NCBI GenBank assembly: GCA_036374835.1
Contig: DASUTB010000005.1
Coordinates: forward strand, 32,708-96,707
Length of the DNA stretch: 64,000 bases
Direction of reading: 5' to 3'
Origin: Jiangellaceae bacterium
Lineage (GTDB): Bacteria; Actinomycetota; Actinomycetes; Jiangellales; Jiangellaceae
Shown here: in pieces, positions 4,069 through 33,709 of the stretch
How positions within the stretch are numbered: the first letter of the stretch is position 1
Layout: each line of letters opens with the position of its first letter
Program-made: the position numbers and the translations under genes
Notes under the pieces: model-generated
Database searches by the model: none
What the model was told of the DNA's origin: nothing
What the model saw: the letters and a program-made list of their open reading frames with translations, nothing else

Positions 4069-4092
4069 CCCCGGCACTATCACGGGCGCGGG

Positions 4093-5952
4093 TTAGAAGG
4101 CGGCTTCGTCGAGGTCCATCAGCGCGTTGTCGGTCGCCTCGGCGATCGAGCGCTCGGCGGTCAGCTTCGGCAGCACGGTGCGCGCGAAGAACTGCGCCGC
4201 GGCGATCTTGCCCTCGTAGAACGACCGGTCGGCCGGCCGTAGGTCGCCGTCGAGCTTGGTAAGCGCCACGGCGGCAGAGCGCAGCAGCAGCCAGCCGACG
4301 ACGAGATCGCCGGCGGCGAGCAGCAGGCGGGTCGTGTTGAGGCCGACCTTGTAGATGTTGCGGATGTCGCCGTTCTCGGCTGCCGGGTCGGACGACATCA
4401 GGTTCTGCACCATCGAGCCGAGCATCGCCTGGACGTCACCGAGCGCGGTCGCGAGCAGTTCGCGCTCTTCCTTGAGCCGGCCGCCGCCGATGTCGGCGTC
4501 GAGCGAAGCCTGGATCTGTTCGTTGATCCATCCGATGGCTCGGCCCTTGTCCTTGATGATCTTCCGGAAGAATAAGTCGAGACCCTGGATGGCCGTAGTG
4601 CCCTCGTACAGCGTGTCGATCTTCGCGTCCCGGACGTACTGCTCCAGCGGGTAGTCCTGGAGGAAGCCGGACCCGCCGAACGTCTGCAGCGACTCCGAGC
4701 CGAGCAGCACCCACGAGCGCTCCGACCCGTAGCCCTTGACGATCGGCAGCAGCAGGTCGTTCACTCGTTCAGCCAGCTCATCGGTTTCGCCAGCGGCGGC
4801 CGCGGCCTGGACGCGGTCCTGCATCGTCGCGGTGTAGAGGACGAGCGCGCGCATGCCCTCGGCATGGGACTTCTGGGTCATGAGCGAGCGGCGTACGTCC
4901 GGATGGTTGACGATCGTCACCCGCGGAGCGGTCTTGTCGTCGGCCTGGGTCAGATCGGCGCCCTGGACGCGCTCCTTCGCGAACTCGAGTGCGTTGAGGT
5001 AGCCGGACGAGAGCGTGGCGATGGCCTTGGTGCCGACCATCATGCGGGCGAATTCGATGACCTGGAACATCTGCGCGATGCCGTCGTGGACTTCGCCTAC
5101 GAGATATCCGACGGCGGGCTCGGCGTCCCCGAACGTCAGCTCGCACGTCGAGGAGACCTTCAGGCCCATCTTCTCCTCGACGTTGGTCGCATTGACGCCG
5201 TTGCGCTCACCGAGCTCGCCGGTCTCGAAGTCGAACTTGTACTTGGGCACGATGAACATCGACAGACCCTTGGTGCCCGGTCCACCGGCGCCCTCCACAC
5301 CGGTGGGGCGCGCGAGTACCAGATGGATGATGTTCTCGGTGAGGTCATGCTCACCAGAGGTGATGAAGCGCTTCACGCCCTCGATGTGCCACGTGCCGTC
5401 CTCCTGCCGGTAGGCCTTGGTGCGGCCGGCGCCGACATCCGAACCGGCGTCCGGCTCGGTCAGCACCATCGTGGCGCCCCAACCCCGCTCGAGCATGATC
5501 TCGGCAATGCGCTTCTGCTCCGGTGTGCCGTTCTCCCATATCACGCGGGCGAAAGACGGTCCGGTCGCGTACATGTAGGCGGCGGCGTTGGAGCCGAGCA
5601 CCATCTCCGCGGCCGCCCAGTACACCGACGGCGGTACGGGCGTGCCGTCCAACTCGGCCGGGGTGGCGAGTCGCCACAGTTCGGTGTCCATCAGCGCGCG
5701 GTACGACGTCTTGAACGCCTCCGGCACGGTGACCGTGCGCTCGGCGGCGTCGTACACGGGCGGATGACGGTCGGCCTCCTCATAGGAAGCGGCGAGATCC
5801 TCCCGAGCGAGGCGGTCGACCTCTTCGAGGATTGCCCGGGCGGCGTCGGCGTCGACGTGCTCGTACTGGCCGTGGCCGAGCAGGTCGCCGCGTTCGAGAA
5901 CGTCGAACAGCAGGAACTCGATGTCGCGAAGGTTGGACTTGTAGTGACTCAT
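4093..5952 (-). CDS. Acyl-CoA dehydrogenase, large (~620 aa) type
   Basis: ACAD N-terminal, middle and C-terminal domain signatures (e.g. [37 protein letters not shown]). Confidence 0.85.
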
Positions 5953-8594: not shown

Positions 8595-8667
8595 GGGCCG
8601 CTAGCTCAATTGGCAGAGCTGTGGACTTTTAATCCATAGGTTCGGGGTTCGAGTCCCCGGCGGCCCA
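8595..8667 (+). tRNA. tRNA-Lys (anticodon UUU)
   Basis: Cloverleaf folded by hand. Acceptor stem GGGCCGC pairs with GCGGCCC, anticodon loop is CTTTTAA, T-loop is TTCGAGT, discriminator A. Confidence 0.85.
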
Positions 8668-28987: not shown

Positions 28988-29806
28988 GTGAGTTCCCTCG
29001 ATGAGATCGCCGCTGAGCTGTACGGCACGCCGCCGGACAAGTTCGTCGCGGCGCGCGATGAGTACGTGAAGCAGGCTCGTGCGTCCGGCGATCGCGCATT
29101 GGCCAGTGAGCTGGGCAAACTGCGGCGGCCGACGCAGGGCGCATGGCTGGTCAACCAGCTGGTACGCGACGACAACCCGGCACTGGGCGAGCTGTTCGGA
29201 TTGGCCGAGGAGTACGCCGCGGCGCTGGCCGAGCGAGACCGAGACCGGCTCAAGGAGCTGACGAACCGTCGGCGTGATCTCGAGGCCCGGCTCGTGGCGC
29301 GGGCGGATGAACTCGGCGTCGAAGCGGGCGCACCACCGAGCGACGAGACGCTGGGGGAGGTGCGCGGGACGCTCGACGCCATCGTTTCGGATCCGGACGT
29401 CGCCGAGCAGGTGCGTGCCGGACGCCTCGTGAAGGCGGCGGGTGCGTCCTGGGGCCCATCACCGTCACCTCCACGCAAAGCACCGGCGCGCAAGTCTGCC
29501 GGCAAGACGCCTGCGGAGGTGAAGCCGACCGAGGACACGAAGACTACGGACGACGCCCGCGCCGCCCTCGAAGCGGAACGGGCCGCCCGTGCCGCGCGGG
29601 ACCACGCTGCCGCCGAGCTCGCCGAACGCACGTCCGAGGCAGACCAGGCGAATGCCGAGTACGAACGGCTCAGCGAACGTCTTGAACAACTGCGCGCGGA
29701 CGTTCAGGCGCTTGCCCAGGACGTCCGGGTCGCGCAGCAGAACGCGGCCCGCGCCGAGCGGCGGCGCGCCAATGCCGAGCGGAACCTGAGGAGACTGGAC
29801 GCGTAG
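28988..29806 (+). CDS. Hypothetical protein, charged coiled-coil C-terminus
   Basis: GTG start. The opposite-strand 336-aa ORF is S/A/R low complexity and was rejected. Confidence 0.5.
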   Translation: MSSLDEIAAELYGTPPDKFVAARDEYVKQARASGDRALASELGKLRRPTQGAWLVNQLVRDDNPALGELFGLAEEYAAALAERDRDRLKELTNRRRDLEARLVARADELGVEAGAPPSDETLGEVRGTLDAIVSDPDVAEQVRAGRLVKAAGASWGPSPSPPRKAPARKSAGKTPAEVKPTEDTKTTDDARAALEAERAARAARDHAAAELAERTSEADQANAEYERLSERLEQLRADVQALAQDVRVAQQNAARAERRRANAERNLRRLDA

Positions 29807-29930
29807 GTGACGTAAGGTGCCGTGCCCAGCCGATCCTCCGGCCGGTTCGACGCATGTTTCTCACCTGATCGCCACCGACGTGGCGATCAGGTGAGCGATC
29901 CGCCCTTACGAGCCGTCCCGGAGCGCCGCG

Positions 29931-30197
29931 TCACACGTTGAGGTGTGCCGGCTCGTGCGTCACGTCCTCGATCTCACCGGCAGCCTTGTCGAGGAGCTCG
30001 TGCACGAGGTGCGACAGCGCGCGAGCCGTCGCGATCTCCTCGCCGATCTGCGGCCTTGCCGGGTCGGAGGGGTTGCGGCGCGCGTGGCCGTTCGCGGTCA
30101 GCTCCGTACCGTCGGCGAGGTGGATCGTCGCCTTGGCGTCGGTGCGAGTGTCGTCCTCGGTGAACGTGACGGTGACCGTCCATTGTCCGGTCTTCAT
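29931..30197 (-). CDS. DUF1876 protein, Rv1738/Rv2632c dormancy-associated family
   Basis: 88 aa, aligns with Mtb Rv1738 as I recall it (WTV...NP.D...IGEEIATARALS.L...H.IE.VTH.PA). GGAGGTG ribosome-binding site before the ATG. Confidence 0.8.
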   Translation of the reverse strand: MKTGQWTVTVTFTEDDTRTDAKATIHLADGTELTANGHARRNPSDPARPQIGEEIATARALSHLVHELLDKAAGEIEDVTHEPAHLNV

Positions 30198-30282
30198 GGT
30201 TTCTTCACCTCCGGATATCTACTTTGTGAGGCATCTACGGACTTTGGCCGGGCTGCAGGCGCCGTTTGGCCGGGGCTTCGGC

Positions 30283-30299
30283 GCTTAACGTGATCATTC
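30283..30299 (-). repeat. Box copy 1: GAATGATCACGTTAAGC, 10 nt past the baeRF stop
   Basis: Read directly. Mini-ORF MITLSAEAPAKRRLQPGQSP. About 60 nt of extended similarity to copy 6. Confidence 0.7.
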
Positions 30300-30309
30300 G
30301 AGGGGGCAC

Positions 30310-31506
30310 CTACCAGCGGAGTAGGGCGCCGATACCGTCCGTGTCGGCGAGCGGCTCGGCGGCCGAGCCGTCCAAGACCGTCACCCGGGCGCCTTCGCGC
30401 AGCGCCATGTCGATCATGCGTTCGTCAAGGCGGGGCTCAGGCTCCAACGCCTGCGGGTCGACGTCCGGCACGGTCTCGGACTCGGCGACGAGCCGGCCGT
30501 CCGGCGTTCGGTTGCCCGTCCACGCCCCGTCCGCCGACAGCAGCAGGTGCGCCACACGCCCCTCGTTCAAGGCTGCGAGTGTTCTGGACAGCCCGCACGA
30601 GCCGCCGTCACTGTTGTCGCTCATCGCGGCGTTGCGCACCCGTTCGGCCAGCCGCCCGTAGCGTGCGATGCGTGCTTTATCGAGCGGTTCGCGGACCACA
30701 CCGGCAAGCTTCGTAGCCGACAGCGACGTCCCCGTGTGATGCGTCCGGACGACGTCCGCGCCGAGGTGCTCGGGGATGGTCTCGGCCACGGCGTGCACGT
30801 TCTTGGGGTCGCCCGCGATCACGACACATTCCCAGCCGAACTCGCGCGCATGGTCGGCGACGCGCGGACCGAGCGTGTGCAGGTATTGGAGCAGCCGATC
30901 CTCTTCCCGCTTGTCGAACAGGTCGTGATGCGAGGCGCTGCTGTGATGCGTCGTCGTCGGGGTGGCGTGGCCCTTTCCGGTTAGCTCGCGCCGGTCGGCG
31001 AGGTCCTCCGGATGTGCGATCGTCGCCACCTCGGTCACCGAACCCATGCGTATGTCCACGAGACGGACTTCGTGCGCGCCGACGGCGACGCATCCGGCCG
31101 GCGGGGCGGCACTCCACGCTGTCAGCAGCGGTCGCAGCGCGGGGCGAGGTCCCATCTCCACCTGATCCGACAACGGCATCTGAACGGTCAGCCTTTCGAC
31201 ATGACCGTTGCTGAGCGTTGCGAACATGGCCCTACCGCGGCCCGGTGCGCGGGCGTCCAGCACCGCTTCGACGTCCTGGTTCAGCTCGTTGAGCCGGTTG
31301 CCGATCGTCGAGAAGCGGTCCCGTGGGCTGGACTTGCGAAGCTCGTCCCGCAGCCGCTTCAAGTCCTTGCGGACCCGGGCCTGCCACGCGGGTTGCGATC
31401 CCTCGTCGGTGGGATCCGCCGTGGCGTACAGCGACAGCACACCGATGTCGTCACTCATATCCGCCAGGCCGCGTAACGTCGCCCAATCGAGAGACACGGT
31501 GCTCAC
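30310..31506 (-). CDS. eRF1-domain (baeRF/Rv2629-like) protein
   Basis: 398 aa. Call rests on overall resemblance to the mycobacterial Rv2629-like peptide-chain-release-factor-like family. Confidence 0.55.
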   Translation of the reverse strand: MSTVSLDWATLRGLADMSDDIGVLSLYATADPTDEGSQPAWQARVRKDLKRLRDELRKSSPRDRFSTIGNRLNELNQDVEAVLDARAPGRGRAMFATLSNGHVERLTVQMPLSDQVEMGPRPALRPLLTAWSAAPPAGCVAVGAHEVRLVDIRMGSVTEVATIAHPEDLADRRELTGKGHATPTTTHHSSASHHDLFDKREEDRLLQYLHTLGPRVADHAREFGWECVVIAGDPKNVHAVAETIPEHLGADVVRTHHTGTSLSATKLAGVVREPLDKARIARYGRLAERVRNAAMSDNSDGGSCGLSRTLAALNEGRVAHLLLSADGAWTGNRTPDGRLVAESETVPDVDPQALEPEPRLDERMIDMALREGARVTVLDGSAAEPLADTDGIGALLRW

Positions 31507-31591
31507 CCCCTACGGCTCGCGCGTCTACTCTCGTATCCCGAGGTTACGCTTTGCCGGCGGGGTCCGTCCCTAGGTTGGCCGGGCAAACTTG

Positions 31592-32677
31592 CTATGGCCG
31601 CTTGGCGCCCACGAACGGTTTGTACGACCCGCCGGCCTGCATGGCAGGAGCGGTGGTCACGTCCGTGCGCGGATTGGACGCGTGCACGACCGTTCCGTTC
31701 CCGATGTACATCGCGACATGGCTGATCGGGCTGCCATAGAACAGCAGATCACCAGGGGCCAATTCGTTGGCCGATACGGGAGTGCCGACGCCGTATTGCG
31801 CACTCGATGACCGGGGAAGACCGACGCCGACGGTGCCGTATGCCCAGCTCGTCAGGCCGGAGCAGTCGAAGGCGTCCGGCCCCGCGGCACCGTAGGAGTA
31901 GGGGTAGCCGACTTTGGAGAGCGCCGCTTGGACCGCGGCAGTCGCCCGCTCGCCGGCTGTGACATCGGCTCCGTCGTCGACATCGGCCCCGTCGTCGGTG
32001 GCCGTGATCCGGTGCGTGGCTTCGGACCGGTCCGCCTTAGCGGCTGCGCGTTCGCGCTCCTCCCGCCGGCGCAGTTCGGCCTGCTGCTCGGCGGTGAGCC
32101 GCTCGAGCAACTCCTGTTGTTGGGCGAGCAACTCCTCGACCGAGTTGCGTTCGGCTCGAAGCGTCGCTTCGATGTGCTCGAGGCGGCGCTCCTGCTCGGC
32201 GGCCATGAGTCTGGCCTGCTCGAGCGAGATCCGCTCGGCGGCGAGCGTCTCGAGCCGGTCGTTCTGCAGTTTCGCAAAGGCGTCCAACGTGGACGCGTCG
32301 GCAAGGTACTGGCCGATGTCGTCGGACAGCAGAGCCGAAACCGCAGGTTCGACGCCGGCGCCTCGGTAGACCGCGGCGGCGAACCCGCCGACCTCAACGG
32401 TCAGCGCGTCGAGACGTTCGGTCTGGCGATCAACTCGCGACTTGGCGCGGTCCAGTTCGCGCTGGGCGTCGGCAAGCTGTTCGGAGGCGATGTTGTGCCG
32501 CTCGTTGGCTTCGGCGGCCTTGGCATGGAGTCTGTCGACCTGGGTCTGGACCTCGTCGAGAGTCGGCTGCGGGTCGGCCCCGACGGCCGAGCCGCCGATC
32601 ACCGCCATGGCCGAAGCGGCGCTGGCGGCCACGACGATCCGGGCAAGGTGCAGTCGATTGCGGGGCTGTTGTGGCAC
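31592..32677 (-). CDS. NlpC/P60 (C40) peptidoglycan endopeptidase with N-terminal coiled coil (RipA-like)
   Basis: Catalytic motif DCSGLTSWAY plus H/H. Signal peptide. GTG start. Confidence 0.85.
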   Translation of the reverse strand: MPQQPRNRLHLARIVVAASAASAMAVIGGSAVGADPQPTLDEVQTQVDRLHAKAAEANERHNIASEQLADAQRELDRAKSRVDRQTERLDALTVEVGGFAAAVYRGAGVEPAVSALLSDDIGQYLADASTLDAFAKLQNDRLETLAAERISLEQARLMAAEQERRLEHIEATLRAERNSVEELLAQQQELLERLTAEQQAELRRREERERAAAKADRSEATHRITATDDGADVDDGADVTAGERATAAVQAALSKVGYPYSYGAAGPDAFDCSGLTSWAYGTVGVGLPRSSSAQYGVGTPVSANELAPGDLLFYGSPISHVAMYIGNGTVVHASNPRTDVTTAPAMQAGGSYKPFVGAKRP

Positions 32678-32689
32678 CGCGGGTCACCC

Positions 32690-32840
32690 TTCCTTCCGCG
32701 TCCGCCTACCGAGTTAGCTGACGGGTTTGGGCGGGGAAGGCGCCCTTCGGCCACCGGTGGCGGCCGACTCACCCCGGGGAAGTGATGGGTCCCCGGTTCC
32801 AGCCTTTGGGCCGGATTCGGCGGGAAGCGAGCTGTCGGTC
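32690..32840 (-). ncRNA. c-di-AMP riboswitch (ydaO/yuaA class) in the leader of the NlpC/P60 gene
   Basis: Transcript-sense sequence GAAUCCGGCCCAAAGGCUGGAACCGGGGACCC...CCCCGGGGUGAGUCGGCC...GGCCGAAGGGCGCC...CCCAAACCCGUCAGCUAACUCGGUAGGCGG matches the hallmark ydaO blocks as I recall them (GAAUCCGG, GGGGUGAAUC, CCCGAACCCGUCAGCUAACCUCGUA). This riboswitch class is known to precede rpf and NlpC/P60 genes in Actinobacteria. Confidence 0.65.
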
Positions 32841-32915
32841 CGTTACCGGCGATGGAGCCCGCCTCGCTCGCGAGGCTAGCGAGGCATGGGACAGTCGGCA
32901 AACCGAAACGCCTCT

Positions 32916-32932
32916 GAATGATCACGTTCGGT
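32916..32932 (+). repeat. Box copy 2: GAATGATCACGTTCGG, heading an ~85-bp element (32916-33000)
   Basis: Read directly. Internal palindrome gtagcttcacgaggcatgc/atgcctggtgaagctat. Confidence 0.7.
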
Positions 32933-33031
32933 ATGTCTCACGTAGCTTCACGAGGCATGCATGCCTGGTGAAGCTATGTCACTCCTGGTGAAGTGTTCGG
33001 CGCAGCGGCAAACGGCGCTAGGGTGTGCGAC

Positions 33032-33709
33032 ATGCCTGCGCGACCTCTCGCTGAGCTTGTCGATTCAGGGTGGGCGCAAGCCCTCGATCCCGTCGCGGAT
33101 CAAGTCGCGGCGATGGGGGAGTTCCTGCGTGCCGAGATCGCGGCCGGACGCTCGTACCTGCCGGCCGGGCAGAATGTGCTGCGGGCGTTCACCCAGCCAC
33201 TGGCCGACGTGCGCGTCCTGATCGTCGGCCAGGATCCGTACCCGACGCCGGGGCATGCCGTGGGCCTGTCATTCTCGGTAGGGCCGGACGTCCGTCCGCT
33301 CCCGGCCAGCCTCGTCAATATCTTCCGCGAGTACTCCGAGGACCTCGGGTACCCGGAACCGAGCACCGGCGATCTGTCGCCGTGGGCCGAACGCGGTGTC
33401 CTGCTGCTCAACCGGTCCCTCACCGTGGCGCCGGGCAAACCCGCGTCCCATCGGGGCAAAGGCTGGGAGGCGGTGACCGAGCAGGCGATCCGTGCGCTGG
33501 CTTCGCGCGGCGGTCCGTTGGCGGCGATCCTGTGGGGACGTGACGCCCGCAACCTGCGCCCGCTGCTCGGCGCCGTCCCGTGCGTCGAGTCGTCCCACCC
33601 GAGCCCGCTGTCGGCCCGCAACGGGTTCTTCGGGTCCCGCCCGTTCAGCCGGGTCAACGAGCTGCTCGTCAATCAAGGTGGCGAACCGGTCGATTGGAAG
33701 CTGCCGTAG
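33032..33709 (+). CDS. ung: Uracil-DNA glycosylase, family 1
   Basis: [18 protein letters not shown] and HPSPLSA motifs, collinear with E. coli Ung. Start trimmed to ATG 33032. Confidence 0.9.

Follow-up and report, generated by a model that had tools for sequence, protein, structure and literature searches.

The locus raises two questions: does the leader of a minus-strand gene for a secreted cell-wall peptidase contain a c-di-AMP riboswitch, as its letters had suggested, and, if so, how might such an element act on the gene? The first-pass annotation had placed a ydaO-class c-di-AMP riboswitch at 32690-32840, in the 5′ leader of an NlpC/P60 (C40) peptidase, and both the class and the placement were borne out. 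When the window (the whole 64-kb stretch of DNA analysed here, G+C 67 %) was searched with cmscan against 4227 Rfam families, a match to RF00379 (c-di-AMP, ydaO/yuaA) was returned at 32832..32688 on the minus strand, within 8 nt of the coordinates first proposed (75.9 bits, twice the gathering threshold of 38; E = 7.6e-16). Model positions 1-134 of 134 were aligned and the match is not truncated; the four sequence blocks that had originally been picked out are all found on the minus strand, from 32832 to 32700, and the aptamer ends 11 nt before the GTG start codon of the peptidase gene. This is the sole RF00379 match in the window, the other Rfam matches being two tRNAs. A rescan of 29800-33100 with permissive filters again gave the single RF00379 match with no credible additions, and a second covariance model, built from relatives, found one copy in the window, the same riboswitch. 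The element is a piece of regulatory annotation missed by ORF-based tracks. Standard Rfam-based annotation would detect it.

32688..32832, minus strand: c-di-AMP (ydaO-class) riboswitch aptamer, RF00379 (cmscan, canonical pairs and covariation in relatives)
31592..32677, minus strand: gene for a 361-aa secreted RipC/CwlO-like NlpC/P60 peptidoglycan DL-endopeptidase (ORF, Pfam, NCBIfam and PDB match)
8595-8667, plus strand: tRNA gene (RF00005, 70.3 bits)
63630-63703, plus strand: tRNA gene (RF00005, 65.8 bits)

The peptidase gene has a GTG start at 32677, likely the true start because a normal signal peptide (MPQQPRNRLHLARIVVAASAASAMAVIGGSAVGA/DP) follows and the next codons are conserved in orthologs. 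The encoded protein is laid out as a signal peptide, a coiled coil and a C-terminal NlpC/P60 domain (Pfam NLPC_P60, PF00877, MEROPS C40; 81.5 bits against a cut-off of 23, aa 257-344), and its Cys-His-His catalytic triad (Cys272/His320/His332) is invariant among 16 homologs. The label RipA-like, under which the gene had first been described, did not survive comparison of the NCBIfam models: RipC (NF038345) aligns over nearly the full length (residues 22-347 against model positions 17-353 of 362, 152.6 bits), whereas RipA (NF033741) aligns over the C-terminal catalytic domain only (residues 248-349, 59.9 bits against a cut-off of 625), and the RipB and RipD models likewise match the catalytic domain alone. 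As 152.6 bits is far below the RipC cut-off of 425, NCBI's rule does not make the protein a RipC ortholog, and we class it as a RipC-like relative. Its best solved relative is Mycobacterium tuberculosis RipC (8idc_E, from FtsEX-RipC complexes), and relatives bear the JGI name ‘DL-endopeptidase CwlO’. M. tuberculosis RipC (Rv2190c), a partner of FtsEX (PDB 8idc), shares with the window protein the layout of signal peptide, coiled coil and C-terminal NlpC/P60 domain. We therefore describe the product as a predicted RipC/CwlO-like hydrolase combining a coiled coil with an NlpC/P60 domain, and not as specifically RipA-like.

Within the aptamer, all of the nested pairs in the six helices (31/31) are canonical in the window. 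The helices are arranged as two three-way junctions, P1-P2-P3 and P5-P6-P7, nested inside P1, and the pseudo-twofold fold of the class, which had been suggested as a check on the assignment, thus forms. The following elements were placed according to the Rfam architecture, with the pseudoknot strands added from their complementarity.

32822-32819/32706-32703, minus strand: P1
32815-32798, minus strand: P2 hairpin
32797-32792/32713-32708, minus strand: P3
32774-32772/32725-32723, minus strand: P5
32766-32748, minus strand: P6 hairpin
32745-32729, minus strand: P7 hairpin
32735..32740, minus strand: pseudoknot 5′ strand CCUUCC, in the P7 loop, complementary to 32697-32692
32692..32697, minus strand: pseudoknot 3′ strand GGAAGG, starting 5 nt after P1 and directly adjoining the Shine-Dalgarno

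The P7 loop reads GCCUUCCCC, and its CCUUCC (32740-32735) is complementary to GGAAGG (32697-32692), giving the 6-bp pseudoknot expected for the class. The pseudoknot-forming segment had initially been located in CCCAAACCCGUCAGCUAACUCGGUAGGCGG; that segment in reality contributes the 3′ sides of P5, P3 and P1, all nested helices, and the true strand, GGAAGG, lies farther downstream. In Thermoanaerobacter pseudethanolicus, the corresponding pseudoknot, formed between the P7 loop and the 3′ end, makes a cap over ligand site 2 (PMC11963983). In relatives, the pairing between P7 loop and 3′ tail occurs in at least seven other sequence versions (CUUCCG:CGGAAG, CUUUGU:GCAAAG, AGUCGU:ACGACU, UGUCGU:ACGACA, UUCUUUG:CAAAGAG, UCCUCU:AGAGGG and CCUUCCGU:ACGGAAGG). 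Duplexes between a sequence's own loop and tail have a mean length of 6.17 bp, against 5.17 bp when loops and tails are swapped between sequences, and 0/5000 permutations attained the observed mean. This swap was used in place of mononucleotide shuffling of the 3′ tail, which, given a tail rich in purines, is a weak null for this pairing.

Conservation was assessed in two sets of loci, one close (L081-L089, with peptidase homologs at 50-94 % identity) and one distant (L001-L080, being 80 reference-genome loci among the matches listed, at 31-40 % identity). In the close set, an RF00379 match exceeding the gathering threshold sits immediately upstream of the ortholog in L081, L083, L084, L085, L087 and L088 (69.9-81.5 bits). 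Our own covariance model also detects the riboswitch in two loci that duplicate others from separate assemblies, L086 and L089, and recovers its 3′ end in L082, at the contig edge. The riboswitch is present in every close ortholog with enough upstream DNA to test. Among the 80 distant loci listed, a full-length copy lies directly upstream of the peptidase gene in 14 (one of them, L011, with a second copy downstream), a copy precedes a neighbouring gene in nine (eight upstream and one downstream of the peptidase) and shortened ydaO-like copies occur in five; several of the distant copies were confirmed with Rfam. Across 37 distinct relatives, aligned by fitting to the model and thus in a manner that favours the structure, 96.3 % of pair cells are canonical and 14 pairs show changes on both sides, while pairing falls to 30-51 % in slid controls in which partners were moved by 1-3 columns. 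RNAalifold, run on 11 sequences, preferred a local CCGGGG/CCCCGG hairpin to P3/P5; this fold was set aside, as the pair counts favour the Rfam architecture.

These counts bear on whether the match might be a chance resemblance, or a structured leader with no relation to c-di-AMP. High G+C (70 %) favours spurious helices, and single-sequence folding of the leader arrives at a minimum-energy structure other than the aptamer, its z-score (−1.78) not being significant, but the E value was obtained against all Rfam families and the element is both conserved and covarying in orthologous leaders. Given the Rfam score, the ortholog conservation and the pair support in relatives, we reject chance resemblance, to which we would assign a vanishingly small probability. 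On sequence evidence, the leader of this gene for a secreted wall peptidase, in a Jiangellaceae actinobacterium, contains a genuine ydaO-class c-di-AMP riboswitch of the textbook type.

How the riboswitch might act depends on what surrounds the aptamer, and the following features of the leader were identified.

32896..32901, minus strand: predicted −35 hexamer TTGCCG, 17 nt upstream of the −10 (TTGC invariant in seven orthologous leaders)
32873..32878, minus strand: predicted −10 hexamer TAGCCT (TANNNT; T, A and final T invariant in seven orthologous leaders)
32836..32848, minus strand: small leader hairpin CGGU-AACGG-ACCG, 5′ of P1 (read from the sequence)
32684..32691, minus strand: Shine-Dalgarno region AAGGGUGA, with GGGUGA 6 nt before the start codon (read from the sequence)
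32660..32680, minus strand: hairpin GCGG...CCGC, including the first base of the GTG start codon (predicted in free and aptamer-constrained folds)

Transcription is predicted to start near 32866 from the promoter TTGCCG-N17-TAGCCT, giving a leader of ~190 nt; the seven aligned orthologous leaders share invariant T..TTGC and T.GCTA...T. A generic sigma-70 promoter scan of 29500-33400 reported nothing, missing the predicted promoter because its hexamers deviate from TTGACA/TATAAT. An 11-nt inverted repeat (GCCTCGCTCGC / GCTAGCGAGGC, 32861-32885) overlaps the predicted −10 hexamer. The small hairpin between the predicted transcription start and P1 is kept in L083 and L084 and shows a compensatory change (CGGC/GCCG) in L087, and appears to be a lineage-specific extra outside the Rfam model.

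Downstream of the aptamer, we take GGGUGA, within AAGGGUGA at 32691-32684, to be the Shine-Dalgarno by its match to the anti-Shine-Dalgarno. The order P1, pseudoknot strand, AAGG(A/G), GUG is common to the close orthologs with a complete leader (L083, L084, L085, L087 and L088). The GCGG/CCGC arms at the start codon also occur in L083, L084 and L087; in other orthologs another hairpin follows immediately on the start codon. The distance from P1 to the GTG is only 25 nt, and a scan of 29500-33400 for terminators found no terminator-like site, with no stem and U-tract in the leader.

From its position, we infer that the riboswitch controls the peptidase gene. With a gap of 25 nt from P1 to the start codon, no terminator and a pseudoknot strand that adjoins the Shine-Dalgarno, the most likely mode is a translational OFF switch induced by c-di-AMP, in which a ligand-stabilised pseudoknot blocks the Shine-Dalgarno, and we hold this reading with reasonable confidence. 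The transcript would start near 32866 and its leader would fold into the P1-P3 and P5-P7 three-way junctions. Once c-di-AMP was bound, CCUUCC in the P7 loop would pair with GGAAGG just after P1, and the pseudoknot would close the aptamer directly against the Shine-Dalgarno, which lies 1-8 nt farther on, with the GTG 6 nt beyond it. Loading of the 30S subunit would then be prevented and synthesis of the hydrolase would fall, such that high c-di-AMP would mean less of the secreted, cell-wall-cleaving enzyme. Occlusion of this kind would be steric and indirect, because the Shine-Dalgarno core (GGGUGA) adjoins the pseudoknot strand and does not lie inside it. For the window RNA, ligand binding, the OFF direction and action on translation rather than transcription are thus all put forward as probable properties, suggested by layout and by kinship with characterised riboswitches.

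Energy calculations spoke for neither state. Nearest-neighbour folding, a model that leaves out the pseudoknot, tertiary contacts and ligand, gave no ligand-free exposure of the Shine-Dalgarno (unpaired probability of Shine-Dalgarno and start codon 0.0-0.24 in the unconstrained ensemble) and favoured a non-aptamer fold by 16 kcal/mol over the nested aptamer helices taken alone. Constrained folding with and without the aptamer did not discriminate the ON and OFF states and lends no support either way. As regards the ligand, a search of six-frame translations for the diadenylate cyclase motif (DGA ... G-x-RHR-x-A) found none in the 64-kb window, which is a weak test.

Blocking of a Shine-Dalgarno can secondarily expose an mRNA to Rho or RNases, a point in favour of another reading, in which the same aptamer and ligand act on the transcript level. 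Non-canonical premature termination, Rho-dependent termination or faster mRNA decay could serve as the means, and all genes on the transcript could then be lowered; the absence of a terminator between the peptidase gene and the hibernation-factor gene downstream agrees with this. Precedents exist, as the Bacillus subtilis prototype is transcriptional and rpfA of Streptomyces coelicolor, the best-studied actinobacterial example, is reported to act on transcription (PMC10117811), its transcript being attenuated although no canonical terminator is present (PMC10117811; PMC9960051). The 25 nt from P1 to the GTG, however, leave no room for a terminator, no stem with a U-tract is present, and in close orthologs the pseudoknot strand adjoins the Shine-Dalgarno, which is the layout of the translational examples. 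We accordingly regard control of the transcript level as the less probable of the two modes, though one that retains appreciable weight.

The translational OFF switch that we favour has parallels in two characterised systems. The RSnlpC riboswitch of Corynebacterium glutamicum nlpC (cg2402) resembles the window in having a ydaO-type aptamer before an NlpC/P60 wall peptidase gene and no canonical terminator; it is a translational OFF switch that represses translation in response to c-di-AMP, and a pyrimidine stretch of the riboswitch has been proposed to pair with the ribosome-binding site (PMC9960051). In the window, by comparison, the peptidase has a RipC/CwlO-like coiled-coil N-terminal half and the genes downstream encode a hibernation factor and an Rv2632c-like protein, in place of the seven-gene cell-wall operon of C. 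glutamicum (PMC9960051). The T. pseudethanolicus ‘riboCdA’ likewise has two three-way junctions, a pseudoknot between the P7 loop and the 3′ tail, and a Shine-Dalgarno and GUG directly after the aptamer, although it belongs to a Firmicute and controls a different gene (PMC11963983). There the pseudoknot sequesters the Shine-Dalgarno and brings about translational repression that depends on both pseudoknot and Shine-Dalgarno (PMC11963983), whereas in the window it adjoins the Shine-Dalgarno core and overlaps the purine-rich run only. The window layout, with its adjoining pseudoknot strand and lack of a terminator, is thus a further natural example consistent with translational control.

In S. 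coelicolor and Streptomyces venezuelae, ydaO-like riboswitches precede seven and six hydrolase genes, respectively, and, as in the window, these are actinobacterial elements placed before cell-wall hydrolases that include NlpC/P60 proteins (PMC10117811). Distant Streptomyces homologs of the window peptidase bear the riboswitch too, but in these relatives the pseudoknot strand ACGGAAGG directly overlaps the Shine-Dalgarno GGAG; rpfA, for which premature transcription termination has been reported, encodes a lytic transglycosylase, unlike the window gene (PMC10117811). The B. subtilis ydaO/kimA riboswitch, the prototype of RF00379, has an aptamer of the same family and is also an OFF switch, but it controls a potassium transporter via an intrinsic terminator, which the window does not have.

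In Actinobacteria, the genes preceded by ydaO are almost all related to the cell wall (PMC9960051), and the expectation that cell-wall hydrolases form the usual actinobacterial regulon of this class, voiced in the first-pass annotation, agrees with the literature (PMC9960051, PMC10117811). The riboswitch class is established already, as are its fold, its ligand and its link to cell-wall hydrolases in Actinobacteria, and the window locus is a regular further example. It would extend to an uncultured Jiangellaceae lineage the rule that actinobacterial c-di-AMP riboswitches guard cell-wall hydrolases, here a putative RipC/CwlO-like endopeptidase. No new question is opened by the locus; specialists might at most take up the adjoining hibernation-factor gene and the shortened ydaO-like elements of Streptomyces, both described below.

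Of the alignment columns with a conservation of 90 % or more in 31 relatives, nearly all are matched by the window. At 32728 (minus strand), however, it has A against G in 30/31 distinct relatives. This position is the first base of the GAA junction leading from P7 to P5 and is an upper-case G in the Rfam consensus. The window also deviates from the local consensus at 32768 and 32747, where the columns are less strictly conserved. The A at 32728 might be a neutral substitution, one that reduces ligand binding, or a mistake in the assembly. If the changes at 32728, 32768 and 32747 had together weakened or retuned the aptamer, the leader might be constitutive or might answer only higher c-di-AMP, and the G shared even by the closest locus (L081, with a 94 %-identical ortholog) and by the Rfam consensus gives this some colour. 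Yet the RF00379 score is still twice the gathering threshold, every helix and the pseudoknot are preserved, and so are the remaining near-invariant junction bases that were checked, which include the A-rich junctions, GUGA and CAGCUAAC; a single base difference could also be an assembly error in a metagenome-assembled genome. A weakened or retuned aptamer therefore seems improbable to us.

Two further genes lie on the same strand beyond the peptidase gene.

30310..31506, minus strand: gene for a ribosome hibernation factor of the MSMEG_1130 family (baeRF), separated by 85 nt from the peptidase stop (family assignments)
29931-30197, minus strand: Rv2632c-like gene, next after the hibernation factor

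The Rv2632c-like protein is identical to the deposited HEX6194531.1. The order peptidase, hibernation factor, Rv2632c-like is kept in L081-L083 and L087, and the pair of peptidase and hibernation factor also occurs in L084. These five are all the close relatives whose downstream flank was retrieved; the gene order is absent from the other 84 loci. On this arrangement, the hibernation-factor gene is a possible operon partner of the peptidase gene. The intergenic region (31507-31591) contains a conserved block, GCGTAACC...TACGAGAGTAGACGCGCGAGCCG.AGGGGGTGAGCACC, just upstream of the hibernation-factor GTG; it matched no Rfam family, even at E up to 1, and its conservation suggests a promoter or leader belonging to the hibernation-factor gene itself. 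The riboswitch transcript may run through the 85-nt gap into the hibernation-factor and Rv2632c-like genes, with c-di-AMP jointly setting wall hydrolysis and hibernation or dormancy, but we consider this rather unlikely, because the conserved upstream block and the probable translational mode both disfavour co-regulation of the hibernation factor. Were such read-through to occur, c-di-AMP would join cell-wall hydrolysis to ribosome hibernation or dormancy in the Jiangellaceae lineage.

On the other side of the peptidase gene, a near-perfect palindrome (32940-32979; 40 bp, 20-nt arms, 90 % complementary, no spacer) occupies part of the gap from the peptidase promoter to the divergently oriented ung gene, and a third copy of its half-site, CCTGGTGAAG, is found at 32984-32993. 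The palindrome, probably an operator, is shared by the closely related L081 but is absent from orthologs at greater distance. The longest ORF for ung (uracil-DNA glycosylase) spans 32993-33709 on the plus strand, from GTG 32993; family models and an identical deposited protein (225 aa, HEX6194534.1) indicate that the true start is ATG 33032.

Several arrangements among the distant loci are worth recording. Shortened ydaO-like elements lie directly upstream of the peptidase gene in four Streptomyces loci (L030:2892-2990, L032:2811-2915, L041:2813-2915 and L048:2812-2915) and in an Actinomycetota MAG (L025:2799-2921). The four Streptomyces elements are half-size, consisting of just P1-P2-P3 with the whole P5-P7 half missing, whereas the element in the MAG is without P6 and P7 only. 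None of the five attained the gathering score of any Rfam family, and a literature search for an ‘NLPC-P60’ RNA motif returned nothing relevant to the half-size elements. The Streptomyces elements retain the GAGUCC, GGAGCCGGGG and CCCGGUAGGCGG blocks together with a compensatory change in P2, and the shortened elements could be decayed riboswitches or a reduced variant. In several other Streptomyces loci (e.g. L047, L069, L056, L005, L039, L017 and L066), the riboswitch lies ~2 kb upstream, before a neighbouring gene and not before the peptidase gene. Finally, L011, an Actinomycetes MAG, carries two c-di-AMP riboswitches ~1.3 kb apart (2712-2888 and 4088-4240), one before the gene for a RipC-like peptidase and the other directly after that gene, before the next one.
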